Shown piece after piece: positions 29,862 through 47,477 of a DNA stretch of 53,503 nt. Position numbers and translations under genes: made by a program. The notes beneath the pieces are model-generated. The model did not search any database, was not told the origin of the DNA, and saw only the letters and a program-made list of their open reading frames with translations. Source of the stretch: a virus (Duplodnaviria > Caudoviricetes); IMG/VR virus record IMGVR_UViG_3300032373_000014, positions 1-53,503 of that record, one strand, 5' to 3'. Positions within the stretch are counted from its first letter, which is position 1. Each line of letters opens with the position of its first letter.

Positions 29862-30760
29862 GCCGCGTCCTTTCCGTATCCAAACTCAATGAGAATTTGA
29901 GGGGGTACCGCCGTGAATGGGCTGTCGGGGGCTTCGCTGCCGTAAGCGGTTTGTGTCCACTTTCCGGTTTGCTGGTAGTTGCGTACACGAGCCCGCCAAA
30001 TGTCATCTTCGGACATTACATTTGCTGGCAGCGTTTCGACGTTTGTCGGTACGGCACCTATCGCAGTAGGCGTCCCTCTCGGCTGGCCAGATTTTCCATC
30101 CCGTTCACAAAATTGCCGCTGATTGCTGTACCAAGTCCGCCAAGTAGCTGACCAGTCCGTCCGCGAAGTGTTTTTGCTCTGGTGATGGTTCCTGAATTGA
30201 TCAACCTGATAGGCCAGGTCAGCAGGGGTGTTGTGCCCTACCCAATAGATCATTGCTTTCTCTTGGTCCTCGGTCGTTGGGCAATCCGAAGGCAAAGTTG
30301 AGTTTCGTTTTTTGGAAACCTTTGGTTTCTTTTCTTGGTTCTGGTTTTGGTATGCTTCTGTTTCGCTACTATTTTCCGGTAGCATTGTTGAAGCGGGTGC
30401 TTCCTGCCTTTTCTTATATTTCAACGCGTTAGCTTGTCCGCCTTTTGCACCATTCGATTTATTTTGTTCCTTTTTTGTTTTTAAATTTTGATACGCTTCA
30501 TGAATTTTTCCATGATAAAAATGATCGTTTTCGATAATGAAAAACTCAGATATAGCAGCTCTCAACTTGCGCCATTTGGCCGGTGTGACGCCAACCATCC
30601 GAGCCAACCGCTTATCATCATCCGGCAACTTGCAGCCCGGTGAACGCCACATACAAATCAGCAGCAATATATACGCCCCATGCTCTTCTACTGTCAGATG
30701 CTTTGTGTCCGCGAGATATGCGTCAGTAAAAAACGGCATGGAAGGAAACTCAGCCATCAA
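29858..30760 (-). CDS. Replication initiator, DUF1376/YdaU family
   Basis: P.MPFFTDAYLADT.HL..EEHGAY.LLL...W......LPDDD..LAR. Confidence 0.9.
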   Translation of the reverse strand: MMAEFPSMPFFTDAYLADTKHLTVEEHGAYILLLICMWRSPGCKLPDDDKRLARMVGVTPAKWRKLRAAISEFFIIENDHFYHGKIHEAYQNLKTKKEQNKSNGAKGGQANALKYKKRQEAPASTMLPENSSETEAYQNQNQEKKPKVSKKRNSTLPSDCPTTEDQEKAMIYWVGHNTPADLAYQVDQFRNHHQSKNTSRTDWSATWRTWYSNQRQFCERDGKSGQPRGTPTAIGAVPTNVETLPANVMSEDDIWRARVRNYQQTGKWTQTAYGSEAPDSPFTAVPPQILIEFGYGKDAA

Positions 30761-32243
30761 AAAGGCCCTCCTGGTTACTGCTAGTATGTGAAAAGGATTT
30801 CGACCTGATCGCGCCTGCAGCCAAATCCACCCGTAGATTTACGGTGCCTGTGGGGCCTTGCCGTTGAGCCGCAAGAATGATTTCCATCTTGCCTTCGAGA
30901 TCGGCAAGTTCCGCCGCTGCGACTTCATATTCGGGTGTAGAGGGGTGAATACCCTCCATAGCTTTACGTGCGTACTGGGCTTGCCGAAAAACAAACATCA
31001 CAACGTCGGCGTCTTGCTCTATTGAGCCGCTATCTCGCAAGTCGGAAAGCATCGGTCGTTTGTCGTCCCTATTCTCTAGGCCGCGGTTTAACTGGCATAA
31101 AACGATATTGGGAACAGTAGTTTCGCGGGCAATTACCTTTAGGCTGCGCGTAATCTCAGTAATCTCATTGACCTTGGAGCCTTTGTAACGATCGCCAGCT
31201 CTCATCAGGCCAAGATAATCAGTGATAACTAGGCCAAGCTTTAAGCCGTTACGGGCGAATTCTCGCTGGAACCGTTTGACCTTCAACCGTAGTTGGCCAA
31301 CGGATAAGCCGGAAGTATCGTCAATCTTGATCGGAAGCTTTGATAGGTAGTTGCTCGCATGAACCAATAGTTCGCGCTCGTCGGCGCTTAAACGCCCTTG
31401 GAGGGCGCGCACATATGGTATCGACCTACCCGATTGAAAGGCCGCGATATCTGTAAGCATTCGGCTGACTAATTGAGCACGTGACATTTCCAGAGAAAAC
31501 ATTGCCACACCGTGACCGGCCTGCCCGGCCGCACGCGCGGCATTGAGTGCCAGGAGCGTCTTGCCCATCTTCGGGCGCCCGCCTATGACAATGAATTGGC
31601 CCTCTTGCGCGCCGCCTGTTAATTCGTCAAGTTCGGGAATTCCCGTTGTTACGCCAACTAAACCATCGCATGCCGACGCTTTTTCAATCAGTTCAAGGGC
31701 TTCGTCACAGGCAGAACCGATAGAGGTGTTTTCTCGCACACCTGCACTCATTTCCTTGTGAATGCGGGCAGCGTGATCTTCCATTCGCTCAAGCAAATCT
31801 GCCGCCGGCACCTCGATGCTCATATTCTGCGCATCGTCTGCAATGGTATGACCGACCGATAAGAGTTCTCGGCGGATAAATAGGTCGCGCACGCCGTTAG
31901 CATATTCCCAATGATTGATAATGGTCGTCACCGAACCCGCCAGCCGGACCAGATATGCGGCACCCTCAAGCGTAACCAAATCTTCGTCATGCTCAAAATA
32001 TGGCTTTAAGCGTACAGGGTCTACCCGTTCACCTTTATCAAATAGCTGGCAGCAAGCTTTGTAGATACGGCCATGAACGGGCTCGTAGAACATATCGTCG
32101 CGGAGCAAATCTCGGACGTTCAACAGGACGTCGTTATTGACTAAGATCGCCCCTAGTATTTGTTGCTCAAGCTCTACATTCTGTGGCGGCAATTGCTCTT
32201 GCTCGCCAAAACCGTCCATTGGATCGAAACGCTGATCATCCAT
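30750..32243 (-). CDS. dnaB: Replicative DNA helicase
   Basis: GGRPKMGKT, FSLEMS, DYLGLM, QLNR..E.R.DKRP.LSDLRDSGSIEQDAD. Confidence 0.96.
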   Translation of the reverse strand: MDDQRFDPMDGFGEQEQLPPQNVELEQQILGAILVNNDVLLNVRDLLRDDMFYEPVHGRIYKACCQLFDKGERVDPVRLKPYFEHDEDLVTLEGAAYLVRLAGSVTTIINHWEYANGVRDLFIRRELLSVGHTIADDAQNMSIEVPAADLLERMEDHAARIHKEMSAGVRENTSIGSACDEALELIEKASACDGLVGVTTGIPELDELTGGAQEGQFIVIGGRPKMGKTLLALNAARAAGQAGHGVAMFSLEMSRAQLVSRMLTDIAAFQSGRSIPYVRALQGRLSADERELLVHASNYLSKLPIKIDDTSGLSVGQLRLKVKRFQREFARNGLKLGLVITDYLGLMRAGDRYKGSKVNEITEITRSLKVIARETTVPNIVLCQLNRGLENRDDKRPMLSDLRDSGSIEQDADVVMFVFRQAQYARKAMEGIHPSTPEYEVAAAELADLEGKMEIILAAQRQGPTGTVNLRVDLAAGAIRSKSFSHTSSNQEGLFDG

Positions 32244-32539
32244 CAAACAAGCCCTCCTGATATAGAAGGTTGTGAGTTGAGGTAAACGGTGGTTTTCAGC
32301 CATTCCCAGAATAGTGAGACCGTATAGCTAAAAGAAACCGCCTCGGACAAAAGGTTGGAAGGCGGCTTTTGCAACCCTAACCGCGTCGCCTTTTTGGTTA
32401 GATCCCCCCCCTTTCTAACCACTGGGGCCTTTTGGTTTACATAGCTGCATGAGAGGGTTTTTAGAGCGAAACTTGCCGAACTTACATTTCCAACCGCTAA
32501 CATCAGAGCATGGATGATTCGAACTATGAGGAATGACTT

Positions 32540-32668
32540 ATGACTACCGTGAACATTACTGACCCTGCCGTGTACGCTATGATTGCGGGTGGGCTGATCC
32601 TTGCCATGATGAAGAATGGATGGACTGCAAGCCAGATTATTGAATTTTTGAAGACATGGCGAAGCTGA
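32540..32668 (+). CDS. 42-aa hydrophobic peptide (not in the ORF track)
   Basis: GAGGA RBS; MTTVNITDPAVYAMIAGGLILAMMKNGWTASQIIEFLKTWRS, antisense within the early operon. Confidence 0.55.
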   Translation: MTTVNITDPAVYAMIAGGLILAMMKNGWTASQIIEFLKTWRS

Positions 32669-32670
32669 TG

Positions 32671-33249
32671 TCATGCGGCCACCTCAAACTTGTCGGTTTC
32701 ATTTCCCCAGCATTGCCACCCTGGACGTTGCGTACGAGCAAACAACTCAATAGCGGGGCCGTCGTACATAGCCTCGATGCGTTCGATTGCCTCATCTGGT
32801 TTGCGGGAATGTTCTCTGATTGGCGCTCGCAATAATTGGCGCACCGCTTTGGATTTAGGGCGTCCCGGTTTCCCTCTTGTAGCAAACAGGCACATTTCAG
32901 GGTTTGCCCGAGTAAAGTATCCAAGCCCAAAGAACTCTGCTCCGGTCTTTTCGTGGTGTTTGATCCAAGTAAACGCGACGGTTTTGTACTCAAACCCCCA
33001 AGCTTCAATGGTAGCTAGCCCTTCCTGCAACAACGGATCTGTGACCCACAAGAACAACACGGCGTCCGGCGCTGCCAAGGCTTCAACCGGGAGGTTTTGA
33101 ATATCATCGATCGTCATGCAGTCGTAATGCTGGACAGCACTCTTATCCGTACCCTTCTTGGAATAGTTCTCGTAGGACCATGCGGGATCGGCATGCACGA
33201 TCTTAAATCCCCCTGCTGGCCTCCGCTCCATTGCCTCCCCTAGCTTCAT
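32671..33249 (-). CDS. MT-A70 family adenine methyltransferase
   Basis: ADPAW (DPPW-like), LFLWVT, WGFEYKT..F.W.K, REHSRKP, IELFAR. Confidence 0.92.
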   Translation of the reverse strand: MKLGEAMERRPAGGFKIVHADPAWSYENYSKKGTDKSAVQHYDCMTIDDIQNLPVEALAAPDAVLFLWVTDPLLQEGLATIEAWGFEYKTVAFTWIKHHEKTGAEFFGLGYFTRANPEMCLFATRGKPGRPKSKAVRQLLRAPIREHSRKPDEAIERIEAMYDGPAIELFARTQRPGWQCWGNETDKFEVAA

Positions 33250-33428
33250 GCTGCCAAATCCTCCGCTTTTTCCTCGCGTTCAAAATCTCGCATCACTTCA
33301 TCAAACTTGTTCTTGCAGGCGCTATTGCTGCGATCAAGGACCTTAGCGATGTAACGAAAACTTCGCTTTTCGTCGTGGCGCAGGACCAGCAGTTTATGGA
33401 TTTCAGCGTCTTCCCATGGCTGGCTCAT
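33246..33428 (-). CDS. Small GcrA N-terminus/Myb-like HTH protein
   Basis: W.D.EI..L..L.......S...IA..L.RS..A...K. Confidence 0.55.
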   Translation of the reverse strand: MSQPWEDAEIHKLLVLRHDEKRSFRYIAKVLDRSNSACKNKFDEVMRDFEREEKAEDLAA

Positions 33429-34000
33429 GATGCTTTCCTTGCGAATACGGTGTCGCGGTGCTTGCCAACGGGCCAGTCTGGTTCAAGTTTGAGTTTATGG
33501 GCCATGTAAATCATCAAACCCATTGCGTCAGCCTGATCTTGCCCGTTAAAGGGAATTCCACGAGCTTGAAGCTCTTGTTTGGTAAGAATATGCGCATCAA
33601 CCCGCTTGGGGTTGTTGCCGATCAGGTGAGTACGCCAGCTGCTGACGTTGCACTCAAAACAACGTAGCTCCAGTTCGTAGCAGACCTCTTCAACATATCC
33701 GCCAATAGCAAAAAGGACCCTCGCCACATCTTGGCTTGTACCATTGACAAACTTACTGTTGCCCTTTGCGTCGCGCTTAACGGTACTAGGTTTGAGATAC
33801 GCGGATTCATACATCACATGCGTAACACCTGCGGTACGCATGAAAGGTATCAACCAGCCTTTGAACTTATTCAGCGATCGCCCGATCTGGCCGTTCACAC
33901 TAGGCATCGTAAAAGTTCCGAGCTTAGGCGAAGAACCGGGCTCCCAAAGAGCGAACCCGGTTTTTGTGGCAAGATCCAATGTCAAGTAGACCTCGGCCAT
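33425..34000 (-). CDS. RuvC-like Holliday junction resolvase
   Basis: LTLDLATKTGFA, V.YE and DQADA acidic motifs. Confidence 0.8.
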   Translation of the reverse strand: MAEVYLTLDLATKTGFALWEPGSSPKLGTFTMPSVNGQIGRSLNKFKGWLIPFMRTAGVTHVMYESAYLKPSTVKRDAKGNSKFVNGTSQDVARVLFAIGGYVEEVCYELELRCFECNVSSWRTHLIGNNPKRVDAHILTKQELQARGIPFNGQDQADAMGLMIYMAHKLKLEPDWPVGKHRDTVFARKAS

Positions 34001-34356
34001 TATGCGGCTTTCTTTTGTTCGGTCGTATTGTCTTGCTCGACCGCATCAATCCAATTTAGCTGACCGCCGTTTGCCAAGGCATTGAAACAAATCGAAAGGT
34101 TACTTTTCTTGGCATCGCGCTCGCCTTCGTCTTCCATTTTTGCTAAACGCCGGGCCGCATTGAAGTCGGCTATCGTAATGCCAGTTTCAGCTTTGAAGTG
34201 ATTTCGTACCGTCTTCATATCCTCGCGGATGTCCTTCGCTTGCTTCTCAAGCGGCTCAAGCTCTTTGTCCAAGAGCCGTACTTGATCAGCAATGTATTTG
34301 GGGTCGCGGTTTCCACTATTGTGGCCCTCCCCTGCGTCGTTGATGTTTGTCGCCAT
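34000..34356 (-). CDS. GapR/DUF2312-like DNA-binding protein
   Basis: GHNS motif, coiled coil ...K.IREDMK.V....K...G, C-terminal AL..GQL. Confidence 0.55.
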   Translation of the reverse strand: MATNINDAGEGHNSGNRDPKYIADQVRLLDKELEPLEKQAKDIREDMKTVRNHFKAETGITIADFNAARRLAKMEDEGERDAKKSNLSICFNALANGGQLNWIDAVEQDNTTEQKKAA

Positions 34357-34390
34357 GTCGGTGTCTCCTTTTCTGGCGTGTCGGGGTTAC

Positions 34391-34891
34391 TTACTGAGCC
34401 GCCCTTAACCGCGGCTGATTGATTTCCGTCTCAAGGCCCGCCTTCATGGCCTCCAGTACGTTGATTGCGTCCGTGACTTCTTTGTGAATTTGGGTGGCTT
34501 CTTCGCGGGTACGTTCTGCTCCGCTGTCCGAGGCGGGGTCACACGAAGCGGCATATGCGCCGGCAACATCGCCAACTTCTTTCATCACTTGGGAAAGCCG
34601 AAGGCCCAACTCGACGGGCTGCCTGTCGTACTCCCCCATAGACAGCAACTGCCTGCGGGTTTCGCTCTCAAGCGCCGCGTGTAAAATCATGTGACCATGT
34701 TTTGTAAATACAGCGGCATCGATCCGGGCCGCGTCTTTGAGCGTAAGCTGGGTAGGATGAAACGGATTCATTGCCTTTTCAAAAGCCGAGCGGGTCTTGC
34801 CTGTTACTGCTTCCAGAATATCCGGGTTGATCGCGTTGACTGCTTCCTGAAGCGCGCCTTCTACTGATCCCGGTTCCCGCCTGTATGTCAT
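34391..34891 (-). CDS. CII-like phage regulatory protein
   Basis: Directly downstream of cro; KEVGDV helical C-terminus typical of this slot. Confidence 0.6.
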   Translation of the reverse strand: MTYRREPGSVEGALQEAVNAINPDILEAVTGKTRSAFEKAMNPFHPTQLTLKDAARIDAAVFTKHGHMILHAALESETRRQLLSMGEYDRQPVELGLRLSQVMKEVGDVAGAYAASCDPASDSGAERTREEATQIHKEVTDAINVLEAMKAGLETEINQPRLRAAQ

Positions 34892-35061
34892 TCCGTTTGT
34901 ACTCCCCAATATCGGACTGGATTTATTTTTCCTTTGAGCCCAGTTTCAAATCGTCGGAGCGGCTCACTACCCCGTTTGTCGCTATTCCCTGGCCGGGCCC
35001 GTCTTTGGATACTCCTTACAAAGCGAGCCCGGTTTCCGCCCCCGTGTGAGAGGAAGGCGTA

Positions 35062-35262
35062 TTACGCGGCTTCGAAGAAATCGGACGGCTCAAGATCAAT
35101 TTGATTGTCACGAGCACAATCCAAAATAGGCTGATGGTGCTTCGCGGGAATTTGTTCTCGAATTCGCCAAGAATTGATCGTGCCGGAGGGATAGCCCGTG
35201 AGCCTAGCCATTGGCCTGGTACCGCCAAAAACTGTCTTAATGATTTTTACTGCTGGTTTCAT
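35062..35262 (-). CDS. cro: Cro-like repressor
   Basis: II...FGG...MA...G....T..SW..R..IP motif; divergent from cI; probably leaderless from ATG 35262. Confidence 0.85.
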   Translation of the reverse strand: MKPAVKIIKTVFGGTRPMARLTGYPSGTINSWRIREQIPAKHHQPILDCARDNQIDLEPSDFFEAA

Positions 35263-35269
35263 AAGCAGC

Positions 35270-35297
35270 ATTGTAATCATTTTGAATACAGCGTCAA
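35270..35297 (-). promoter_or_regulatory. PR-like promoter for cro
   Basis: TTGACG (35297-35292), 16-bp spacer, TACAAT (35275-35270); overlapped by operator 35272..35290. Confidence 0.7.
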
Positions 35298-35345
35298 TAA
35301 AAATGTGCTCACAATGAATACGGACATGTATTCATTTTTCATACA
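35272..35345. promoter_or_regulatory. OR: three 19-bp operators, consensus TGTATTCA-N3-TGAATACA
   Basis: TGTAATCAtttTGAATACA 35272; TGTGCTCAcaaTGAATACG 35304; TGTATTCAtttTTCATACA 35327. Confidence 0.85.
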
Positions 35346-35347
35346 AG

Positions 35348-35959
35348 ATGCCGTCTATGAGTCGAATTGGATTGAAATTAAAAGAACTTAGGGAGCGCAC
35401 CGGGCTCTCTGTTCGAGCCTTTGCAGATGAGGCTAAGATGAATTTTGGGACCTACGCAAATTGGGAAAATAGGTCGAAAAAACCGTTCTTGAGTATGGAC
35501 ATGGTTTCAAAGTTCATGCCTGTCTACCTGGCTCATGGTATCGAAAGAAGTGAAGTTTTGAGACTTGTAGGCTTAGAAGAAGAGCCGCATTTTCAAGAAC
35601 TAAGCAATGCCTCGCAAGACGTTATCCGCTTTGAAGAAATACAGATCAGCCGTCAATTGAGCGCGGAGGTCGAGGACCCTATCAAGTATAGAGAAAGCGG
35701 TCGGCCAGCGATTGATATTCTCGTAGTGGGCGAAATTGAGTCCCTTGGTCCCCAATTATATGTAGTTGGTGTGGTTGGTGATCAGATAGTTGCGTATCCT
35801 TCTGATTTTAAGGGGAACCTTGGGACACCGTTGCCTTTTGATCCTCATGCCGATTGGGACAACGGAGAGGTTCTTGTAGATAAAAATAAACACACTTTTC
35901 GCATTTTAGGCGTTGTTCGCTCGCTGAATGTTGAGTGCAACGGGTCCCCCATACAATAG
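35348..35959 (+). CDS. cI: CI-like immunity repressor
   Basis: N-terminal XRE HTH (LKELRERTGLSVRAFA......TYANWE); divergent from cro across the operators; degenerate S24-like C-terminus. Confidence 0.85.
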   Translation: MPSMSRIGLKLKELRERTGLSVRAFADEAKMNFGTYANWENRSKKPFLSMDMVSKFMPVYLAHGIERSEVLRLVGLEEEPHFQELSNASQDVIRFEEIQISRQLSAEVEDPIKYRESGRPAIDILVVGEIESLGPQLYVVGVVGDQIVAYPSDFKGNLGTPLPFDPHADWDNGEVLVDKNKHTFRILGVVRSLNVECNGSPIQ

Positions 35960-36159
35960 CGGTATTCTTAATAGCAGATTTGTTCGCCCTTTTCATGCCG
36001 ACCCCAACTCGTTGACAATTTAATCAATAACGGCGAACACTTTAGCGCAGCCGAAATCGTCAACGTCTAGAAAAAAGACGTGTTTGCGGAAAAAGTATCC
36101 TCTAGGTTTCCGTGGGACACTTAGGCGTATCCTTTTAAGACATGATCACACCTTATGGT

Positions 36160-36390
36160 TTAGTTTTTGATCTCTGGATTTCCAAAATTTGAAAGAGTGA
36201 TTCGCTCGGTATCATGTGAAAGTAGCATTCGCTTACATAGCGTCAGATGGAAGCTTAGTTCGCTTATTTGCAGTTTTTCGGCCATTTTCGCACACCTATC
36301 TAACTCAAGAAGAAGTTCAGCGTGTTCACCTACCAAGTCTTCCTCACCTCTATAAATACGCGCAGTCCGCGTAAATGAAATATCTGACAT
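36160..36390 (-). CDS. 76-aa protein co-transcribed with luxI
   Basis: ATG 5 nt after the luxI stop, GGAG RBS; helical composition. Confidence 0.7.
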   Translation of the reverse strand: MSDISFTRTARIYRGEEDLVGEHAELLLELDRCAKMAEKLQISELSFHLTLCKRMLLSHDTERITLSNFGNPEIKN

Positions 36391-36395
36391 CTGCC

Positions 36396-37040
36396 CTACT
36401 CCGCCGCAATTTTCATGGCAGCCATACCGCTCAAGTCGTAGGCATCGGTGGATGGAAGTGGAAAATTAAACAACTCGGCCGCCTGAAGGCGCTGTCGCTG
36501 GAAGGAAGGCCTGAAGGCAACGACTTGCGCGTTGGTCTTTCCTGCGGGCCTGGGCTCTGTACGAATATGGGGGATGCCAAAAATCTGTACCGAGAGATAA
36601 GTAATTGAGGGGTCCTGAAGCATAATAACTTCGTCCACACCCTTTAGCGTAAGAAACTCGGCCATCGTGCAGAACATATCCAAAGCCACGCGCTCAAAGC
36701 CATCCTGAGTATCCACTTTTTCCCGGTCTATAAAGAAACGCGAAAGCTCCCAAGCACTATTCTTGCTGGGCAAATAGCCGTCAGCATAATCCGGCCAAAT
36801 ATCCCGCAACATGTAACTTCCTGTTGTCGGCAGTAAGCGCCACATTCCCAGCACATCACCGTGTTGATAGTTGATCACATAGACCGTACCTGGGTGGTCA
36901 TAGATATCGCGTTCTTCGTCCCCATCACAGTCAACGGCCCACCCTAGCATGTCGTGAAAGATCAGTTTGCGCTTTCTAAACATCATACGTTTGATGTGAG
37001 GGTACTCGTCGAGTTGTGCGCCCGTAGCGATGAAAGCCAT
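36396..37040 (-). CDS. luxI: Acyl-homoserine-lactone synthase (LuxI family)
   Basis: R...F...LGW, EERDIYD, RLLPTT..YML and WELSRF: all core LuxI motifs present. Confidence 0.95.
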   Translation of the reverse strand: MAFIATGAQLDEYPHIKRMMFRKRKLIFHDMLGWAVDCDGDEERDIYDHPGTVYVINYQHGDVLGMWRLLPTTGSYMLRDIWPDYADGYLPSKNSAWELSRFFIDREKVDTQDGFERVALDMFCTMAEFLTLKGVDEVIMLQDPSITYLSVQIFGIPHIRTEPRPAGKTNAQVVAFRPSFQRQRLQAAELFNFPLPSTDAYDLSGMAAMKIAAE

Positions 37041-37074
37041 AATAACGTCTCCTTTGTTTCGGAAACGTTATTAT
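37039..37074 (-). promoter_or_regulatory. 14-bp mRNA stem-loop occluding the luxI SD and start codon
   Basis: AUAAUAACGUUUCC-GAAACAAA-GGAGACGUUAUUAU(G); fully paired with one G:U. Confidence 0.75.
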
Positions 37075-37122
37075 CAACGGTTTATGACTAGTGCTGTATC
37101 CCCAAATACTGGGACAGAGGTA

Positions 37123-37860
37123 TTATTTTATGAATGGCAGGAACTTAGCAAATGACATCTTAAATGCCGCTTGAGGCACATTCTTTGCCTCAAGCTTCTG
37201 GAGTGCCCGCTTCACATGAGTATCGGTAGACGCCACCCCTCTACCTTGATTTTCCGACACTTTCTTGCGAGTAGCGCCATCCATGATCAATTCTATCATG
37301 GTATCGCGTTCGGTTGGGCTGAGGTCAACGCCGACCGGACTCGGAGCCATTCCAATCTCATGGCTAAAGTGATTTATGTGAATGGAGATGTGGGTCAATA
37401 AATCTTTGTAGGATTCCCACACGTGTTCTGCCTCGTCCTCAGTTCCGAAGAAAGACAAACAGCCCCACTTGCCACTAATGATACCCACAGGAAAATGGCA
37501 TCCGTCCGCCATACCATAATCAGCAGCGCGTTCCATAAAGTGTTCCGCCTGTGGCGACAGGTCCAGCTGTTCTAATTGGGGCTTCCAGCGAAAAGGCGAG
37601 CCGACAGTTGCGGCCAACAAGGAAATAGGATCAATACGGAAATAGCCTTCACGGTCATATTCTTCCATCCATTTCTTAGGCCGGGTGTCTATCTCATCAT
37701 AATGCGCTAGTGAAGAACCAAACCACCACGTGAAACCAGATATCCCAATTTCCCTAGTCAGCTTCCTGAGACAGCGCTCAAGGTTGCCCCGGGTCCTATC
37801 GCGATTCAACGCCGTGGCAAAATTGATAGCGCCTTCTAATGGTTCAATACTATCGGTCAT
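37123..37860 (-). CDS. luxR: LuxR-family AHL receptor/regulator
   Basis: Autoinducer-binding residues W..EY...Y..IDP, PF.W and A.DYG..DG; C-terminal LuxR HTH (LSPTERD...H.K....KL); GGAGG RBS before ATG 37860. Confidence 0.93.
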   Translation of the reverse strand: MTDSIEPLEGAINFATALNRDRTRGNLERCLRKLTREIGISGFTWWFGSSLAHYDEIDTRPKKWMEEYDREGYFRIDPISLLAATVGSPFRWKPQLEQLDLSPQAEHFMERAADYGMADGCHFPVGIISGKWGCLSFFGTEDEAEHVWESYKDLLTHISIHINHFSHEIGMAPSPVGVDLSPTERDTMIELIMDGATRKKVSENQGRGVASTDTHVKRALQKLEAKNVPQAAFKMSFAKFLPFIK

Positions 37861-38023
37861 GAACGAACCTCCAAAGTGAAGATACAACTTTCAGTGCGTC
37901 TTTTCCAACTACATCTATTCCTTTAACGACATTTAAACCATCGTCACGTGATATACATCACGGCTACAGGGACCGACCACTTGTAACATATCGAAGAAGC
38001 AAGTCGGGGAAGGCAGGCTCGAA

Positions 38024-38392
38024 ATGAGTGAGAACACGAGCGCTAAATGTAAAGATATCAATAGACTGATAGGCAGACGTGTGTTTGATGCGCGCCGGAT
38101 GCAGGGAATTGAGCGCACCGACCTAGCGGAACTATTGGGTATTACTAAGCAGCAAATGGGGAAGCTAGAACGTGGCGAGGTCGCGTTTAAAGTTGATCGA
38201 TTGATTGCCGTTGCCGATCACATGGGTATTGCGCCTAGCGTATTTGTTGATAGTCTGAACAGTGAAAATTCCAATGACCATCATGCCGCACTTCTTCATC
38301 TCATTATGGACAAAACTAGCAATGCAGAACTACGGCATATAGAGACTATTTTAAACCTGATGCTTGATCTTCCCGGTCGAAACAGCGATTAA
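38024..38392 (+). CDS. XRE-family transcriptional regulator divergent from luxR
   Basis: IGRR....R...G....DLAELLGIT.QQ..K.ERG. Confidence 0.88.
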   Translation: MSENTSAKCKDINRLIGRRVFDARRMQGIERTDLAELLGITKQQMGKLERGEVAFKVDRLIAVADHMGIAPSVFVDSLNSENSNDHHAALLHLIMDKTSNAELRHIETILNLMLDLPGRNSD

Positions 38393-38489
38393 TTTCGCGA
38401 CTAGTGAAGCCACCCTTCTCTCCTAAACTCCCTATTTCCGTATGAAAAAGACGGCTAAAAACCGCCAGTGTGTGCTGATTAACCCTAAA

Positions 38490-38544
38490 TGTATTCATTT
38501 TGATTACATTTCTGTTGACATTGTTTTCATTTTGAATACATAAT
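38490..38544 (+). promoter_or_regulatory. OL/PL: two 19-bp operators overlapping a sigma70 promoter
   Basis: TGTATTCAtttTGATTACA 38490; TGTTTTCAtttTGAATACA 38522; TTGACA (38515), 18-bp spacer, CATAAT. Confidence 0.85.
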
Positions 38545-38682
38545 ACACCCATAGCAGCGACCAAACGGGCTTTTTACCAACTCTAAGTATCAACGCTCGA
38601 TGGTTCGCCAGCTACCGCAAACACCCGATACAGCCAATAGGCACACCGGGCAGCGGTTTTGAAACGAAATGGGGTACGACAA

Positions 38683-38985
38683 ATGAACGCAGCATTAGAA
38701 CAGTCATTAATTAACGTAGAACTAGCAGGAAACACGGCCCGGCGCCGTCACGCGGAACGCCTTGCACAAACTGTTACTGATCTTGATTTGAAATGCTGGT
38801 TCATGGCAACGCACCCGGACGGAGATTTCCCCTCCGATCCCGAAGAACGCATTAAATTGCTTTTGCCTATCCGAGATTACTTTGCTTCTTCACACAACAG
38901 CCTTGCTTTTCAAAAAGTTGAAGCCGCGATTTGCCGCGAGTTGTTACGAGAGGAAGAACTCAATAGCGCTCGGGAGGCGGCGTAA
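38683..38985 (+). CDS. Hypothetical early protein (first PL gene)
   Basis: GGGG RBS; coupled to the next gene. Confidence 0.7.
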   Translation: MNAALEQSLINVELAGNTARRRHAERLAQTVTDLDLKCWFMATHPDGDFPSDPEERIKLLLPIRDYFASSHNSLAFQKVEAAICRELLREEELNSAREAA

Positions 38986-39305
38986 TGGGCAACGTAATCA
39001 ACATGAACGAATTCAAAGTTTCCTCCCCAGCCCGGAGCGACAGAGGGAAAGCGGCCCCCACCCAATTCCCTCCTGTAACGTCGCTCCGGGTATTGGAGGA
39101 CCGCAATATAGCCGAGGTGAGGATGGCGACCTGTGTGCGTGAGGCCGACGCTCTTTTGAGTGAGGCAAAGCGGCAAGCTGCCATATTACGAACCTTGGAC
39201 GCGCCGCAAGCCGATGCAGCAATGGGCATGCTCATCATGGCACGCAAAAGCGCCCGAACGGCAGTCGAATTAATTCACGGCCCACCACCGAAAATAGGAG
39301 CCTAG
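38985..39305 (+). CDS. Hypothetical early protein
   Basis: GGAGG RBS, TAATG overlap. Confidence 0.7.
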   Translation: MGNVINMNEFKVSSPARSDRGKAAPTQFPPVTSLRVLEDRNIAEVRMATCVREADALLSEAKRQAAILRTLDAPQADAAMGMLIMARKSARTAVELIHGPPPKIGA

Positions 39306-39307
39306 AA

Positions 39308-39547
39308 ATGCACGATCAACAGTCAGTCAACGGGCGAGTTATGCCTTGTTCAGAGGAACGCCGCGCCAGCCAGTTCACGGATATGCAGCAGATGGCGAAG
39401 ATCACGGCCCGCTCCGCATACGGCTATTTGGTCCAGCCGGAATTGTTCAAGGACAACAACATCGACCCTCAAATCAAGGGCGTGCTGCAGTCGATGCAGG
39501 CAAACGCGGAAGACCTTCATGCCCTGATATCAAAGCGTGCGGCATGA
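39308..39547 (+). CDS. Hypothetical early protein
   Basis: AGGAG RBS. Confidence 0.65.
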   Translation: MHDQQSVNGRVMPCSEERRASQFTDMQQMAKITARSAYGYLVQPELFKDNNIDPQIKGVLQSMQANAEDLHALISKRAA

Positions 39548-39681
39548 ACGCCCCCGTTTACATAAACCGGCGCATCAGGCGCTCACGCATGAGCCCGCAC
39601 CGTAAGCGCATGTTGATTGCAGCAGCGGTGAGCTTTGGCTTGGCGGGCGGTTTGCTGGCCCTAGCTGCGGGGATTTTGTGA
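39544..39681 (+). CDS. Small membrane peptide
   Basis: ATGA overlap; basic N-terminus plus TM helix. Confidence 0.55.
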   Translation: MNAPVYINRRIRRSRMSPHRKRMLIAAAVSFGLAGGLLALAAGIL

Positions 39682-40037
39682 TGACCGATACGCAGCACTC
39701 ACCCGCCCCTTGGGCACTAGCCGACAGCATAGTAGCCTACAACCATATCATCGATGCCAACGGTAAGGTGATAGCGAAGATTGAAGGTACAGACAACCCG
39801 CAGGAATGGCTAGCAAACGCCCGCCATATTTCGTCCGCACTCGATACGCATCATGCGTTACTACGCTCTAACGAGCTAATAATTGCGGCCCAAAAAGCAA
39901 TTTGTCTTTACTTGCAACCAACCGGCCCAGATTGGCAGGACCTAGTTGAAGAGCTCATAGAATTATTCGACGGTCCGGCCCAGCGCGAAATTCAATCTGC
40001 CGTAACCGCCGCCCTCAAGAAAGCGAGGGGCGAGTGA
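39678..40037 (+). CDS. Hypothetical phage protein
   Basis: HSPAPW...ANAR.I motif common in phage early genes. Confidence 0.7.
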   Translation: MMTDTQHSPAPWALADSIVAYNHIIDANGKVIAKIEGTDNPQEWLANARHISSALDTHHALLRSNELIIAAQKAICLYLQPTGPDWQDLVEELIELFDGPAQREIQSAVTAALKKARGE

Positions 40038-40237
40038 TGGACAGGGAAGATGTTCAAATATTAACCCAAGAGATTGGCTGCTCAATTCGAGAAGCTAACA
40101 CTTCTTTGCGTGATCAGTTCGCAATGGCAGCGCTTAGCGGGATGCTAGCACATCCTAGAAACCAATGTGACCCCGCCCACGACGTAACCACAGCCTATAA
40201 ATTTGCCGATGCAATGATGATAGCGAGGGGCGAGTGA
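40034..40237 (+). CDS. Hypothetical phage protein
   Basis: LRDQFAMAAL...AY..ADAM...R motif. Confidence 0.75.
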   Translation: MMDREDVQILTQEIGCSIREANTSLRDQFAMAALSGMLAHPRNQCDPAHDVTTAYKFADAMMIARGE

Positions 40238-40638
40238 TGGTTGATAACCAAACCCAAACCAGCCAATTCCGCGCGGTAGTCTTGGCGGCACTCAAGGCAG
40301 ACGCCGTGCTGGGGTTTATGCTTGCTGGCATCTACGACGAAGCGCCCAAAGATGCCAGCTATCCCTATTTGGCTATGGGCGAAACCAACCTGCGAAACGC
40401 CGATACATCCGGGATTAGTATCATGTTTGACCTGATGTTGTGGTCTGATGAAAAGAGCCAAATGCGGGTCAAAGAATTAATGGCTGCAGTGGATACCAGT
40501 CTGGAAGCAGCCGACATTTCCTTGGAAGTGATAACCCTGCGGCTGGTAAGCGCCAGCACAGTGCGCCAATGGAGCGAAGCCGGAAGCCTGTACCGTGGTC
40601 GCCTAAGTTACGATGCCAAGATTACGAGGGCTGCGTGA
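40234..40638 (+). CDS. Second DUF3168 tail-terminator-like protein, in the early operon
   Basis: Aligns by eye with 13093..13506: ADA.L, YDE.P.DA.YP, FD...WS.E.SQM..KEL...VD, RQ....G..YRGR..Y. Confidence 0.8.
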   Translation: MMVDNQTQTSQFRAVVLAALKADAVLGFMLAGIYDEAPKDASYPYLAMGETNLRNADTSGISIMFDLMLWSDEKSQMRVKELMAAVDTSLEAADISLEVITLRLVSASTVRQWSEAGSLYRGRLSYDAKITRAA

Positions 40639-40769
40639 TGAAAAAGCTCACCCTCACCATATTGCTAGGCAGTTCCGCGCTCGCCTCATTTGCATCTGGC
40701 CTGCCTGCACTCGGTTTGTGCCTGGCTGTCGGCTGCTACTTGCTGGTGAGAGGTTTTAAGCATGCTTAA
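40638..40769 (+). CDS. Small hydrophobic peptide
   Basis: MKKLTLTILLG..., coupled to neighbours. Confidence 0.5.
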   Translation: MKKLTLTILLGSSALASFASGLPALGLCLAVGCYLLVRGFKHA

Positions 40770-41089
40770 GCGCCGTACAAGGCCCCGCAGGACCGCGAGA
40801 GACGAGAACGCGCAGCATCGCAAGTATGTTCGAGGTTTCGAGTGTCTGGTGAACAACAGCTACTGCTCTATCCGCATTGAGTGCGCGCATGTTCGAAAAG
40901 GCACCGATGGCGGCATGGGCAAAAAAACCATCCGACAAATATACGGTCCCTCTTTGTGACCATCATCATGACGAGCAACACCGCATCGGGGAAACGACGT
41001 TCTGGAAAACATACAAGATTGATCCGCTGAAAGTGGCCGCCCGCCTGTGGGCGTTGAGCCCTTACGGCAAGAAAAAGGAAGCGGCATGA
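40762..41089 (+). pseudogene. DUF968-like HNH nuclease split by a frameshift
   Basis: CAHVR...GGMGKK in one frame, PSD...VPLC..HH.EQH in another; A7 run at 40921-40927. Confidence 0.7.
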
Positions 41090-42054
41090 CGTTCGTAATC
41101 ACAAAACCCGGAATTTATGACGTGCCCGAGGAAGAATACCACGCCGATCCGGTGCCGTCGCTGTCGCTTAGTAGCAGCGGTGCCAAGAAGATGTATGAGA
41201 AAACGCCCCTACACTACTGGACGGACCGTCGACTAGGGAGCAAGTCAACGTCAGCCCTCAAGTTGGGATCAGCCGCGCACATAGCACTCTTGGAGCCTGA
41301 GCGTTTCGACAAGACCTATTTCGTTATGCCTGAAGGCCTTTCCATGTCTTTTGCTGCAACCAAAGCATTGAAAGAGGAATTTGGCGAAGACGGCGTTAAA
41401 GAGCTAAAGGCAACGGCCAAGTCTGCTAAGGAAATCGGGCAAATTCTCCTATCGTACAAGGATGCCGAAATCGTCAAAGGCATGAAGGAAGGTATGGGCC
41501 GCAAGGAATCCATCCTCTCCAAGTTCATCACTTGCCCAAAGGAGCAATCGGCTTTTTGGTTCGACGATGTGTTTCGCATCTGGCGGCGCGCACGTTTTGA
41601 CTACTTGCCAAATGAGGGCCGGATATTCGCCGACTATAAAACCACCACTGACCTAAGTGATGACGCAATCAACAAGGCAGTCAGTAACTTTGGATGGCAC
41701 CAGCAAGCCGCTTGGTACCTAGACGCCATCAAGGCGCTAGGCCTGCACGACAAGCCTGTTTTCATGTTCATCATGCAGGAGAAAAGCCCACCTTACGAAA
41801 TTAGGTTGGTCGAGCTTGACTATCAATCAATTGCAGACGGTCAGGTCGTGAACGGATGGGCAATGGACCAGTTCGCTCGCGGGATAGAAACTGGCGAATG
41901 GCAAGGCTACCCATCCGCACCCTACATCGCAACGCGCCCGCGGTATGCAGAGACCATTTACGACGCCAAGCAGGAGGCCGGAGACTTTGCCCTCACACAC
42001 CGATTGAAGGCGGAATTTTATCAACCAGAAATACATGAGAAGGAAGCGGCATGA
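41086..42054 (+). CDS. RecE/exonuclease VIII-like PD-(D/E)xK nuclease
   Basis: PGIY.....EYHAD, LSSSG.K, GSAAH...LEP, RARFD, DYKTT, QAAWY. Confidence 0.88.
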   Translation: MTFVITKPGIYDVPEEEYHADPVPSLSLSSSGAKKMYEKTPLHYWTDRRLGSKSTSALKLGSAAHIALLEPERFDKTYFVMPEGLSMSFAATKALKEEFGEDGVKELKATAKSAKEIGQILLSYKDAEIVKGMKEGMGRKESILSKFITCPKEQSAFWFDDVFRIWRRARFDYLPNEGRIFADYKTTTDLSDDAINKAVSNFGWHQQAAWYLDAIKALGLHDKPVFMFIMQEKSPPYEIRLVELDYQSIADGQVVNGWAMDQFARGIETGEWQGYPSAPYIATRPRYAETIYDAKQEAGDFALTHRLKAEFYQPEIHEKEAA

Positions 42055-42992: not shown

Positions 42993-43114
42993 CCACCAGC
43001 CAGGCAGTGACAACGGGCAAAGGGAAAGAAGCCCCGTTCGAGCCACACATTAAGCCCTACCGCTTCTCATGGCTCCCAGTGATGGCGGTAGGCACAGAGA
43101 CAAAGGAACCCGAC

Positions 43115-43423
43115 ATGAGAAACAGCCCCGACCCCATAGACGTTTTCGTAGGTCAGCGAGTACGCGACCGCAGGAAAGAAACCGGCTTATCGCAAACGCA
43201 ACTCGGCAAAGAGATTGGCGTCACCTTTCAGCAGATCCAGAAGTATGAAAAAGGCACCAACCGGATGGGCTCAAGCCGTTTGGTCCGTATAGGCCGCACT
43301 CTAGGTATTCCCGTTTCGTACTTCTTTGAAGGCCTGCCGGGTAACGACAACAGCGCTGAAACGCCTTTGGATAAAGCCCGACGCCTTTCAACCGAATTGT
43401 CCCTTGCGCTCAAGGCTGCTTGA
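43115..43423 (+). CDS. XRE-family regulator
   Basis: D..VG.R.R.RR...GLSQ..LG..IGVTFQQIQKYEKGTNR. Confidence 0.92.
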   Translation: MRNSPDPIDVFVGQRVRDRRKETGLSQTQLGKEIGVTFQQIQKYEKGTNRMGSSRLVRIGRTLGIPVSYFFEGLPGNDNSAETPLDKARRLSTELSLALKAA

Positions 43424-43499: not shown

Positions 43500-45782
43500 A
43501 TGAACGTCACACCAATAACAACAATCCGCGAAATCCGACACGGCCACCTGTTCTGCGGTCTCGGTGGCGGCGCTCGTGGCTTCAACCGAGCCGCCCCGCG
43601 CGTCGGCAACATGCAAGCCAAGTTCGTTTGTGCAGGCGGCATCGATAGCGACCCTGGTGCAATCCGTAATTTCGAGCGAATGGCAGGCACGAAGGGTACG
43701 CTCATGGACCTATTCGACCGCCAGCAATACATAGATTTTCACGGCCAAGAACCGGGGAACGACTGGCGCGAGGCAATACCTGCGGACATTCACAAAGTCT
43801 TCGGCCCTGCCCTCGACATTGTGTTCCTTTCAGCGCCGTGTAAGGGCTTTTCCGGCCTCCTATCCTCGACAAAATCGAAAACCGACAAGTACCAGGCGCT
43901 GAACCGTCTAACTCTTCGTGGCGTTTGGTTGATGCTCGAAGCCTACAAAAACGAACCGATCCCGGTCGTACTCTTCGAGAATGTTCCACGAATTTTGACG
44001 CGCGGTAAATGGCTGCTTGACCAAATTTCAGCGCTATTTCGCTCCTACGGCTACAGCGTGAACCTAGACACGCACGACTGCGGCGTTATCGGCAACCTCG
44101 CACAAAGCCGCAAGCGCGCACTACTGATCGCTCGCCACATAGAGAAGGTTCCTCCTTTCATCTACCAGCCTCGCGAGCACAAGCTGCGCGGTGTGGGCGA
44201 GGTGATCGGCAAGCTACCGCTCCCCGGAGACCCGATTGCTGGCTCCATGCACCGCGTGCCGTCGCTTCAATGGAAAACGTGGTTGCGTCTTGCCCTAGTG
44301 CCGGCAGGTAAGGACTGGCGTGCTCTCAATGACCTTACCGTTGTCGACGGAAACTTGCGCGACTACGGTATCGTGCCAGAGGTGCCTTTGCGCGAGAACG
44401 CGCTCGGCGTGAATGACTGGTCCGACACCGCCCCTGTCATCACCACGCACCGCGCGCCCGGGCAAGGCCGGTTTTCAGTTGCCGACCCTCGATACGCTTC
44501 AACCTTTGAAGGAGCTGGCCCCTACGGAGTGGAGGATTGGAAGGAACCCGCAAAAGCGATAAGGGGAGCCAACCGCCCCGGCAATGGCACCTTTAGCGTG
44601 GCGGACCCTCGTTACGGCGATCGTGACCGCGACAGCACGTTGGGTGTGAAAGAGTGGGACGCGCCAAGCGGTACTGTGCAGGCGAAGAGTGGGCCGACAA
44701 ATGGAGCCTTCTCGGTCGCAGATCCCCGCCCTCCTGAGAAAGCCAATCAGACCTATAAGCAATATGGTGTGAATAACTGGAAAGAGACGGCAGGCACTGT
44801 CTCAGGTCAATCCGGGCCTGGTGGTGGCGCTCATTCCATTGCCGACCCGCGTATTCCTGGCAAGCCGCGTTTCAATAACGTCTTTCGTATCGTGCCTTTC
44901 GACGGCACTTCACCTGCCATAGCTGGCCCCGGTGGTCCTGCTGGTGGTGTCGCCGTCGCTGATCCGCGCAATCACGGTCACGAGCAAACATCTAACAAGT
45001 ACAGAGTGACCCCGTTTGATGGCGTTAGCCGAACCGTTTTAGGTGCCAGCACCACGGGCGACGGTGCTTTTGCCGTAGCGGACCCTAGACCTAATTGGGG
45101 CAATCAGCGGCACTCAAACATTTTGCGCGTCACCAAATATGACGAAGCGGCCGGCACAATTGCCGCCAATGCCCACGGCGTGACGGGCGGGAAACCTTGT
45201 GTTGCCGATGCTCGGCGCGAGAATTACCAAACTGGCGGGCATTATGGCGTCGTTGATTGGGACCAAAACGCCTATGCGGTCAGCGGTTCCGCTTGCCACG
45301 ATAACGGGTTTAATTCTGTAGCCGACCCCCGCGATGCTATTCTGGAAGCCGACCAAATTGCGACGCCAGCGCCAAAAGATCGCCTTATATGCCGCATCAT
45401 TGCAACTGACGACACATGGCACCGCCCTTTTACGACATTAGACCTAGCCGCGCTGCAGTCCCTTTTCGAGCCCGAAGAAGTCTTTTTCCAAGAGGAAACC
45501 GAGCTGGGGAATATCTGGCGCTGCCATGCCCCATTCGACCTAGAAGCAAGCAGCGACGTGACGAAGCGCGAATGGATTGGCAACATGGTCCCGGGCGCCG
45601 CCGCCACTGGTATTGCCGACACGATAGGCGAAACCATCCTCCTTGCCGAACAGGGCGAGTCCTTCTTTCTCAGCATGCGCGAAATCTGGGCCAAGCCGGG
45701 CGCTCTTGCCTTATCCGTCGACAACGATCAGCTGGCATTTCGTATTGATAGTAACGAAGCGATCTCGGAGGACGCAGCATGA
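43500..45782 (+). CDS. DNA cytosine-5 methyltransferase with internal tandem repeats
   Basis: HLFCGLGG, APCKGFS, FENVP, Q.RKR and WIGN motifs; eight ADPR-type repeats. Confidence 0.9.
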   Translation: MNVTPITTIREIRHGHLFCGLGGGARGFNRAAPRVGNMQAKFVCAGGIDSDPGAIRNFERMAGTKGTLMDLFDRQQYIDFHGQEPGNDWREAIPADIHKVFGPALDIVFLSAPCKGFSGLLSSTKSKTDKYQALNRLTLRGVWLMLEAYKNEPIPVVLFENVPRILTRGKWLLDQISALFRSYGYSVNLDTHDCGVIGNLAQSRKRALLIARHIEKVPPFIYQPREHKLRGVGEVIGKLPLPGDPIAGSMHRVPSLQWKTWLRLALVPAGKDWRALNDLTVVDGNLRDYGIVPEVPLRENALGVNDWSDTAPVITTHRAPGQGRFSVADPRYASTFEGAGPYGVEDWKEPAKAIRGANRPGNGTFSVADPRYGDRDRDSTLGVKEWDAPSGTVQAKSGPTNGAFSVADPRPPEKANQTYKQYGVNNWKETAGTVSGQSGPGGGAHSIADPRIPGKPRFNNVFRIVPFDGTSPAIAGPGGPAGGVAVADPRNHGHEQTSNKYRVTPFDGVSRTVLGASTTGDGAFAVADPRPNWGNQRHSNILRVTKYDEAAGTIAANAHGVTGGKPCVADARRENYQTGGHYGVVDWDQNAYAVSGSACHDNGFNSVADPRDAILEADQIATPAPKDRLICRIIATDDTWHRPFTTLDLAALQSLFEPEEVFFQEETELGNIWRCHAPFDLEASSDVTKREWIGNMVPGAAATGIADTIGETILLAEQGESFFLSMREIWAKPGALALSVDNDQLAFRIDSNEAISEDAA

Positions 45783-45793
45783 CCAGATCGTCA

Positions 45794-46000
45794 TCAGTTG
45801 GCAGCCGCGATCCGGCGAAGCCTTACAATACCTCCGCCATGATGGCCGCCGTTCGGATAATCCTTTACCCATTTGCAGCCGGTACCGGGCTCGTCATAAA
45901 ACTGCGTCCATCCATCAGACGTGGACGAAGTGTGCTCAAGGCTCGACTTTACAAAATCAATGGCATCGCGCCCTTCGAGAAGCTTGTCATATTCAACCAT
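45794..46000 (-). CDS. Imm27-like orphan immunity protein
   Basis: GW...Y..P..G..W...YP....HGGG...L motif. Confidence 0.65.
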   Translation of the reverse strand: MVEYDKLLEGRDAIDFVKSSLEHTSSTSDGWTQFYDEPGTGCKWVKDYPNGGHHGGGIVRLRRIAAAN

Positions 46001-46015
46001 TTGTCAAAGCCTTCG

Positions 46016-46372
46016 TCATCTGTTGTCAGGCTTGCCCTTGAACCAATCGATCAATGTCTTGAAAAACGGCGTGCCAGTTTTTGGGCTGTAGGTTTTGCGG
46101 CCTTCAGCAGTATTATTAAGTTCCCACACACTTTGAATTTCGTTGGCATCAACGGCATCTATGATTTCTTGCAGCGTAGCCACAGAAACGCTGGCGTCAA
46201 AATATCGCAAACGAAAAACACCCTTGGCAGTGGTCTCATTGGAGCAGCCGACGCATTCGAGGTCGTGTTCTTCAGTGAAGATATCATCGAACCAGTCTTC
46301 GATTTCGTCATCGTCAAATCTGACGATGGTAAAACCGTCACGTTCCTCAACCCAGATATGCGTATCAACCAC
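46016..46372 (-). CDS. Acidic hypothetical protein
   Basis: 118 aa, GGGA RBS, cassette-like context. Confidence 0.75.
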   Translation of the reverse strand: MVDTHIWVEERDGFTIVRFDDDEIEDWFDDIFTEEHDLECVGCSNETTAKGVFRLRYFDASVSVATLQEIIDAVDANEIQSVWELNNTAEGRKTYSPKTGTPFFKTLIDWFKGKPDNR

Positions 46373-46390
46373 ATTTATCCCCGTTCGTCG

Positions 46391-46744: not shown

Positions 46745-46762
46745 TACCTAGTGTCCCTGTCG

Positions 46763-47422: not shown

Positions 47423-47428
47423 GCACGC

Positions 47429-47457: not shown

Positions 47458-47477
47458 ACAACAGCGGAGGCTCTGCC

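Follow-up and report, generated by a model that had tools for sequence, protein, structure and literature searches.

Does a tailed phage carry, inside the region that governs lysis and lysogeny, a complete system for making and sensing its own acyl-homoserine lactone (AHL), and does this signal feed the decision between the two? The question is raised by a luxR-luxI pair in a stretch of 53,503 nucleotides (nt) of viral DNA, positions 1 to 53,503 of the IMG/VR virus record IMGVR_UViG_3300032373_000014, referred to here as the window. Its preliminary description, made from the sequence without database searches, had proposed an AHL-based analogue of the arbitrium system and had stated that a tailed phage both producing and sensing an AHL of its own had yet to be characterised. 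The latter statement is contradicted by a preprint of 3 July 2026 (Bunsick et al., bioRxiv 10.64898/2026.07.02.736140), cited here and below from its accessible text, according to which two unrelated prophages of Phaeobacter inhibens T5, Phage A and Phage B, both produce and detect AHLs of their own and thereby control lysis and lysogeny. In the window, we found the pair to be part of a self-contained AHL cassette, HTH122-luxR-luxI-orf76 (HTH, helix-turn-helix), which lies inside the immunity region of a phage and recurs in heteroimmune phages. By analogy with known systems, the signal of this cassette may be coupled to the cI/Cro decision of the phage, a tentative reading to which we assign a probability of about 0.45. 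The positions of the features are collected in Table 1.

Both genes were confirmed to be intact and to keep the hallmarks of their families, and they stand in tandem on the same strand with 82 nt between them, as the preliminary description had maintained. The luxI product matched the Autoind_synth family (PF00765) with an E value of 2.8e-24 and a score of 86.1 bits against a cut-off of 24, and a GGAG is located 9 nt ahead of its ATG. A search of the PDB returned LasI (E 6e-14) and TofI-type synthases (E 9.7e-14). In an alignment with 40 diverse relatives, R24, F28, W34, D45, D48 and R68 were invariant and E43, E98, S100 and R101 were among the nearly invariant columns, and the window protein has all ten. 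The motif VIMLQD, from which a signal of non-3-oxo type had previously been surmised, corresponds to residues 138-143; the LasI alignment stops at query residue 139 and the EsaI alignment at residue 110. The luxR product matched Autoind_bind (PF03472) with an E value of 4.3e-21 and 75.4 bits (cut-off 23). Its start in the list of open reading frames (ORFs) is a TTG at 37887, and the ATG at 37860, with GGAGG ahead of it, is the better start. Residues W64, Y68, D77, P78, W92 and G120, which we take to be the hallmark set of the LuxR family, pair with LasR residues in the PDB search (E 7.4e-9) and are invariant in the LuxR proteins of the five cassettes described below, as is E184. The match to the GerE helix-turn-helix was weak, reaching 18.3 bits under a cut-off of 23.5, and the alignments with RhlR, TraR and CviR reach residues 224-233.

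The low GerE score would fit the view that the pair is a decaying, functionless remnant, or else host DNA miscalled as provirus, as would the facts that the provirus bounds were computed by a program and that the CheckV completeness estimate for the record is 70%. We regard this explanation as extremely improbable, for three reasons: phage operators flank the pair, which is separated from attR by about 15 kb and from attL by about 36 kb; neither ORF is truncated, each having a ribosome-binding site and every conserved residue; and the same arrangement is repeated in two other viral contigs.

The location of the pair beside cI-like, cro-like and cII-like genes, already noted in the preliminary description, was then defined by the operators. 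A 19-bp palindromic operator, TGTATTCA-N3-TGAATACA, is present in four copies in the window at up to two mismatches, and none of 100 shuffles gave any copy. The copies form two clusters of one operator, OR-like and OL-like, each overlapping an outward-facing promoter-like site, as in a lambda-like immunity bracket. Five genes are enclosed by the two clusters, namely the cI-like gene on the plus strand, orf76, luxI and luxR on the minus strand, and HTH122 on the plus strand. Being enclosed on both sides, the cassette is outside both early operons and beside the repressor gene; its luxR-luxI-orf76 part is convergent with cI and must therefore have its own promoter.

Relatives of the cassette were searched for in several collections. 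An exhaustive LuxI profile search gave 1356 hits at E <= 0.001, with only four cluster representatives at E <= 1e-30, the best of them 54% identical, and a word-based search returned three proteins, the query included, among 124 candidates. Judged from these sequences, the window LuxI is a member of a small clade. Scans of 2.9 million viral contigs, limited to this clade, gave two loci, L003 (LuxI 65% identical) and L004 (47%), and a 13-sequence alignment returned the same two contigs. A genome scan gave one locus, a 5.2-kb contig titled 'MAG: Kordiimonas sp.' (L005; MAG, metagenome-assembled genome), with a LuxI about 42-43% identical. Among 151 genomes of the order of this MAG, 43 had a LuxI match at E <= 1e-10, and identity exceeded 37% only in the MAG (43%) and in a genome, G496, whose locus L028 encodes a LuxI 50% identical to that of the window. 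The pair is thus not near-identical to any host locus found, the best match being 50%, and it is present in related phages, the opposite of what the preliminary description had named as refuting its reading.

In all five loci (the window, L003, L004, L028 and the MAG contig) the cassette consists of a divergent XRE gene of 113-124 amino acids (aa), luxR, luxI and, overlapping the luxI stop or starting no more than 5 nt from it, a small ORF of 67-80 aa. The counterparts of HTH122, each divergent from luxR, are 23-31% identical, and those of orf76 22-48%. An xre gene heading the luxR-luxI operon was found in none of the five loci; in the window, the 163 nt from the luxR ATG (37860) to HTH122 (38024) contain no ORF on the luxR strand. 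Pfam and PHROGs gave no family for orf76, and hits in the Atlas were limited to unnamed clusters under 0.9 and to look-alikes of generic helical-hairpin type. A prediction of an orf76-LuxR complex from the LuxR and orfX alignments scored 0.03 and 0.08 against a mark of 0.32, which speaks neither for nor against binding. Beside these shared genes, we observed in L003 (1543-2460) and L004 (7845-8720) a protein of 291-305 aa that has a zinc ribbon and a predicted membrane segment, placed between the OL-like operators and the cassette HTH gene, with no counterpart at the equivalent place in the window. In G496 a 95-aa ORF with a hydrophobic N-terminus and no Pfam family (L028, 9470-9757) is inserted between luxR and luxI.

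A convergent cI-like gene was found beyond the cassette in four of the five loci. L004 and L003 each have the cassette bracketed by operator clusters of their own (L004, 7797-7852 and 11704-11776; L003, 1484-1540 and 6157-6213), and the convergent cI-like gene, cro and cII follow the cassette in both. The operator sequences differ among the window, L003 and L004, and the cro-like protein of the window is 34% identical to its L003 homologue. Comparison of the window with L004 returned identities of 47% for LuxI, 32% for LuxR, 29% for the HTH protein and 40% for cI inside the bracket, and of 78-91% for the adjacent early genes and 66% for cII outside it. In G496 the neighbours of the cassette are a tyrosine integrase, a large polyvalent protein and the cI-like gene. 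The probable origin of the cassette is capture, as a single unit, from a host-type cassette.

Several elements bear on the expression of the cassette. Promoter prediction returned no sigma-70-like site for luxR, as would be expected if its transcription depends on an activator. A GTGAY-N4-RTCAC palindrome between luxR and HTH122 belongs to a pattern with two matches in the window against 0.13 expected; the pattern is also present in the equivalent intergenic region of L003 and absent from those of L004, L028 and L005 and, as it rests on two loci, it is a lead and not a finding. At the attL end, in a group of accessory ORFs of the plus strand, the second copy in the window (670-683) precedes by about 80 nt a small ORF (748-990) with a signal-peptide-like N-terminus. 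The luxI leader folds into a hairpin whose minimum free energy has a z score of -3.51, with none of 200 shuffles equally stable, and the stem is kept across the five loci with 12 consensus pairs, six of them showing compensatory changes; this suggests translational control of the synthase. Within the 3' end of luxR we also observed a perfect 10-bp inverted repeat with a 7-nt spacer (37169-37195), and just downstream of it a promoter-like site (37151-37122, minus strand, 9/12) that could give luxI its own transcript. A lux-box-like CTGT-N16-ACAG after luxR was considered and discarded, since a small hairpin explains this element better.

Table 1. Positions, strands and supporting details of the features in the 53,503-nt window.
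Feature	Position	Strand	Details
attL, left copy of 52-nt exact direct repeat	182-233	none	identical to 52740-52791
27-nt repeat, two tandem TTGCACCCCAC units	324-350	none	exact second copy at 52664-52690
cII-like regulator	34391-34909	minus	PF06892 Phage_CP76, E 2.1e-6, 28.1 bits (cut-off 26)
cro-like small HTH protein, heads leftward early operon	35062-35280	minus	by position; YdaS match weak, E 0.0048, under cut-off
OR-like region	35270-35345	none	operator copies 35272-35290 and 35327-35345, promoter-like site
Promoter-like site facing cro	35297-35270	minus	10/12; overlaps OR-like operators
cI-like repressor	35348-35959	plus	HTH_31, HTH_3 and phrog_8/3/4 matches; N-terminal HTH and all-beta C-terminal domain
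orf76 (orfX), small helical protein	36160-36390	minus	begins 5 nt past luxI stop
luxI, AHL synthase	36396-37040	minus	214 aa, no internal stops; PF00765 match
RNA hairpin, 14 bp, pairing luxI Shine-Dalgarno and AU of start codon	37039-37074	minus	fold and covariation
luxR, AHL receptor and transcription factor	37123-37860	minus	245 aa; PF03472 match
GTGAY-N4-RTCAC palindrome	37948-37961	none	luxR/HTH122 intergenic; candidate LuxR or HTH122 site, putative function
HTH122, XRE-family regulator	38024-38392	plus	HTH_3, E 6.6e-8; divergent from luxR
OL-like region	38490-38544	none	operator copies 38490-38508 and 38522-38540, promoter-like site
Promoter-like site facing exo/RecT/int arm	38515-38544	plus	11/12; overlaps OL-like operators
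Tyrosine integrase	51447-52727	plus	phrog_1, E 9.2e-31; adjoins attR
attR, right copy of 52-nt repeat	52740-52791	none	overlaps 3' part of tRNA-Val
tRNA-Val(GAC)	52745-52820	minus	3' end overlapped by attR

The repressor enclosed with the cassette was then investigated. Its structure model had a predicted local distance difference test (pLDDT) value of 80.1, and a Pfam search with the C-terminal domain gave no hit, including none to PF00717, even at E 10. A Foldseek search of this domain against the PDB returned two matches at E <= 0.001, both chains of the lambda-186 hybrid repressor, with TM scores of 0.26-0.29, and the LexA C-terminal domain appeared only at E 0.074. As the fold search was weak, the link to the S24 family rests on BLASTP with the S24-type cI of L003, which aligned over the full length with 25% identity and an E value of 5e-7. 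In this alignment GDQI of the window stands opposite GDSM of L003, and VVRSL opposite TVKEL, so that a serine is replaced by glutamine and a lysine by arginine; we presume these two positions to be the S24 catalytic dyad. The dyad-less form was also found in L004 (11112-11720) and in G496 (L028, 10904-11557), and the L003 repressor keeps GDSM and a Pfam S24 match. A repressor without the Ser/Lys dyad needs some input other than RecA-stimulated self-cleavage, and this requirement for another induction route raises our estimate that the cassette is coupled to the switch.

In such a coupled system, the cassette would be transcribed in lysogens from its own, probably activator-dependent, promoter, LuxI would make an AHL specific to the allele of the cassette, and AHL-bound LuxR would autoinduce the operon. 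The AHL level would then report the density of cells carrying this type of prophage. If the Phaeobacter prophages are a guide, the signal, fed into the cI/Cro decision, would most likely make lysogeny more stable once lysogens are numerous; the connecting step might be HTH122, orf76 or the convergent transcription of luxR-luxI-orf76 into cI. The arbitrium analogue put forward in the preliminary description is in line with the anatomy of the locus, that is, its bracketing by OL and OR, its recurrence in two heteroimmune contigs and its diverged alleles; nothing found here shows an action on lysis versus lysogeny. A link to the production of gene transfer agents, also suggested there, received no support.

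Several results weigh against coupling. According to the preprint, the Phaeobacter module is itself the switch, whereas the phage in the window has its own cI, Cro and cII with their operators. No site common to the cassette intergenic regions and to OR or OL was found, and no LuxR-type site was found at OR or OL. L003 carries the same cassette and yet an intact S24 repressor, hence loss of the dyad is no general feature. The phage contigs with the cassette number three, of which L003 and L004 are fragmentary, with completeness values of 61% and 64%; neither of these two related records gave a match to the integrase or the major head protein of the window, so that kinship with them is shown for the early region only. 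The divergence of the cassette could moreover be ordinary mosaic exchange of the entire immunity region. On the MAG contig the cassette is flanked by genes for a purine nucleoside phosphorylase and an aldehyde dehydrogenase, with no phage gene on the contig; the presence of the whole cassette there indicates that HTH122 and orfX belong to the cassette and not to the phage switch, and that the cassette can function in the absence of a phage. Accessory genes expressed in the lysogen are common in immunity regions, such as lambda rexAB, and position alone is therefore no proof of coupling.

The copy in the MAG, the frequency of accessory genes in immunity regions, the missing shared site and the intact repressor of L003 make lysogenic conversion a serious rival. 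Here the cassette would be a moron set that alters the social behaviour of the host, through a new AHL channel or through cross-talk with host LuxR proteins, with no input to the phage switch. Its place within the immunity region is a classical moron position, its four genes occur among housekeeping neighbours on the short MAG contig, and the phage is equipped with a full cI/Cro/cII set; a phage AHL that also activates host quorum sensing has been described in Phaeobacter (bioRxiv 10.64898/2026.07.02.736140, accessible text). We nevertheless consider lysogenic conversion somewhat unlikely, because the cassette is linked to a convergent cI-like gene in four of five loci, including an integrase-linked element other than this phage, because its alleles diverge along with immunity specificity in three heteroimmune phages, and because the repressor has no self-cleavage dyad. 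In addition, in the only characterised phage LuxI/LuxR systems, as far as the accessible text of the same preprint goes, the pair controls the switch.

The tight coupling of orf76 to luxI, and the small, helical nature of its product, which is of no known family, bring in a further alternative, in which the signal would promote induction and not lysogeny. At high AHL, LuxR would boost luxR-luxI-orf76, and either orf76 would inactivate the non-cleavable cI or the convergent transcript would interfere with cI expression. Prediction gave no terminator-like site in the 200 nt that separate orf76 from the convergent cI, and the cI protein, being without the S24 dyad, would suit such a route. There is also a precedent in the Aeromonas phages Apop and ARM81ld, where a small ORF (smORF) product inactivates cI without proteolysis (PMC10432266, accessible text). 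This alternative appears quite improbable to us, since the MAG cassette, which has no cI, has a small ORF in the same position, though only 22% identical, and since the counter-oriented gene beside luxR encodes an HTH protein of 122 aa and is no smORF. Induction amid dense lysogens of its own kind would also be the opposite of the logic described for phage-made AHLs in the accessible text of the Phaeobacter preprint (bioRxiv 10.64898/2026.07.02.736140).

Taking coupling to the cI/Cro decision further, the system might be a hybrid of two known phage-LuxR designs with an independent origin outside the Roseobacter clade. A four-gene AHL cassette of the host would have been built into the cI/Cro region, with a private AHL allele for each immunity type, the dyad lost in three of four cassette-linked repressors and a census of lysogens, not the SOS response, as the main input. 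As a complete scenario we hold this to be rather unlikely. Should the cassette be coupled to the switch, AHL signalling by phages would reach further than reported and would have evolved more than once, and a quorum-sensing signal and a classical repressor switch would be open to study in one system. If it is uncoupled, the window would offer a clear case of a phage giving its host a complete new signalling channel.

The cassette is carried by the prophage of a temperate, lambda-like siphovirus, which measures about 52.5 kb and has tRNA-Val as its integration site. The preliminary description had called it a complete prophage bounded by att sites, and the 52-nt repeats, the tRNA gene, the integrase and the structural and replication genes bear this out; we call it complete because of its att repeats and gene set, although the CheckV estimate is lower. 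Between the att repeats, the minus strand encodes the tail fibre, tape measure, major head, portal and large terminase proteins, and after these structural genes come a primosomal protein, DnaB, a methyltransferase, a RuvC-like resolvase and the cII-like and cro-like genes. The plus-strand arm from 38659 contains small ORFs, an exonuclease, RecT, an HTH protein, a methyltransferase, an HNH protein and the integrase. With its two divergent early arms, this gene order is lambda-like. The 27-nt repeats are probably arm-type sites of the integrase, to judge from their arrangement, with the copy at 324-350 a candidate for the P' arm; once the ends are joined, the repeats flank the att core, and one copy lies within the 3' end of the integrase gene. 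A megablast search with positions 30000-42000 gave no match to deposited phages, and an Rfam scan of the window returned the tRNA only.

The 712 nt past attR comprise the remainder of tRNA-Val together with the beginning of a gene for N-formylglutamate amidohydrolase. The 157-aa fragment of this flanking gene had a match in 248 of 401 alphaproteobacterial genomes, a set that includes the unpublished genome G241. The best match was the Kordiimonas MAG, with 164.5 bits and 55% identity, followed by a match of 123.6 bits. In two more genomes of the order of the MAG the flanking gene is 57% identical, and its adjacency to the tRNA gene is kept both there and in the MAG. The host is a marine alphaproteobacterium and, on the basis of the flanking fragment and of synteny, is probably related to Kordiimonas at about the level of order.

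Some further features of the prophage were recorded. A repeated stretch of 20-47 nt, 83-100% identical, occurs in the right arm at 48169-48215, 50187-50206 and 50353-50399, and at two gene starts its end is formed by a ribosome-binding site and an ATG. The right arm also encodes a second XRE-family protein (43007-43423), 46% identical over 80 residues to the HTH protein of the MAG cassette, to which HTH122 is 30% identical. Large ORFs at 16627-18975 (782 aa) and 45779-47485 (568 aa) and a secreted-looking 207-aa ORF at the attL end (1138-1761) have no PHROG family.

A literature search gave no report of a Kordiimonas-type or cI-linked phage LuxI/LuxR pair among the matches listed, which is not proof that none is in print. 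In a collection of 50,697 phage records, seven had LuxI-like matches, all under 40% identity and 80% coverage, and none had both a LuxI-like and a LuxR-like match. Roseobacter phage RDJL Phi 2 likewise has a LuxI-family gene on a tailed phage, gp55 (KT266805.1), 39.6% identical over 42% of the query; however, this solo synthase adjoins the large terminase gene, and no luxR is annotated in the 6.3 kb inspected. The logic proposed for the cassette, in which a diffusible signal made by the phage counts carrier cells, resembles that of arbitrium (AimR/AimP of SPbeta-like Bacillus phages) as presented in the accessible accounts of it. The chemistry and proteins of arbitrium, a peptide and a receptor with tetratricopeptide repeats (TPR), are instead unrelated to those of the cassette and show no homology, and the phage in the window is outside that family. 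The lambda rexAB genes lie between cI and OL, outside the early operons, and are expressed in lysogens by co-transcription with cI. The cassette of the window similarly lies between the repressor gene and the leftward operator and promoter, whereas its orientation is convergent with cI.

The XRE-LuxR-smORF modules of Aeromonas phages reportedly were also the subject of a paper in mBio in 2019 (PMC6456758). In the accessible text of Silpe et al. (Nature 2023, PMC10432266), the phages Apop and ARM81ld have xre-luxR without luxI, and LuxR-AHL together with XRE turns on the smORF that inactivates cI. The ARM81ld LuxR was the sole match to the window LuxR in the phage collection, with 28.6% identity. 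Both systems thus place a LuxR-type receptor of the phage alongside a cI repressor, and the Aeromonas route to the switch is described as independent of SOS. The Aeromonas phages differ in that they have no luxI, listen to the AHL of the host and carry luxR in an operon with xre. Their output is a counter-oriented smORF of 156 nt that inactivates cI and leads to lysis, whereas the counter-oriented gene of the window encodes the 122-aa HTH protein.

The closest parallel is offered by the Phaeobacter prophages (bioRxiv 10.64898/2026.07.02.736140). As far as the accessible text of the preprint goes, their module consists of four genes, an hth divergent from xre-luxR-luxI, with a distinct AHL for each LuxI; LuxR-AHL activates and autoinduces the lysogeny operon, and inhibition of the phage quorum sensing leads to induction. 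In the same text, luxI is counted in 53 of 93 Roseobacter prophages, the modules act as exchangeable cassettes, with cI or BRCT modules in their place in some relatives, and the authors themselves draw the parallel with arbitrium. The window shares with these modules a synthase and a receptor on a prophage, a co-oriented luxR and luxI in this order, a counter-oriented HTH gene upstream, a location at the regulatory heart of the prophage, and related phages with strongly diverged or exchanged alleles. It differs in that its operon has no leading xre gene and has instead the small orfX after luxI. Phage A and Phage B, which we compared by description and not by sequence, are Mu-like or myovirus-like and are presented as having no recognisable cI/Cro, whereas the phage in the window is a lambda-like siphovirus. 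Prophage-linked xre-luxR-luxI operons are reported in the preprint solely from the Roseobacter clade, as alternatives to cI-type switches, whereas the host of the window is probably related to Kordiimonas and its intact LuxI/LuxR cassette, different in lineage and in layout, lies inside a cI/Cro immunity region and coexists with the switch rather than replacing one. A claim of no precedent therefore no longer holds, and what is new here is the host lineage, the type of phage and the layout of the cassette.

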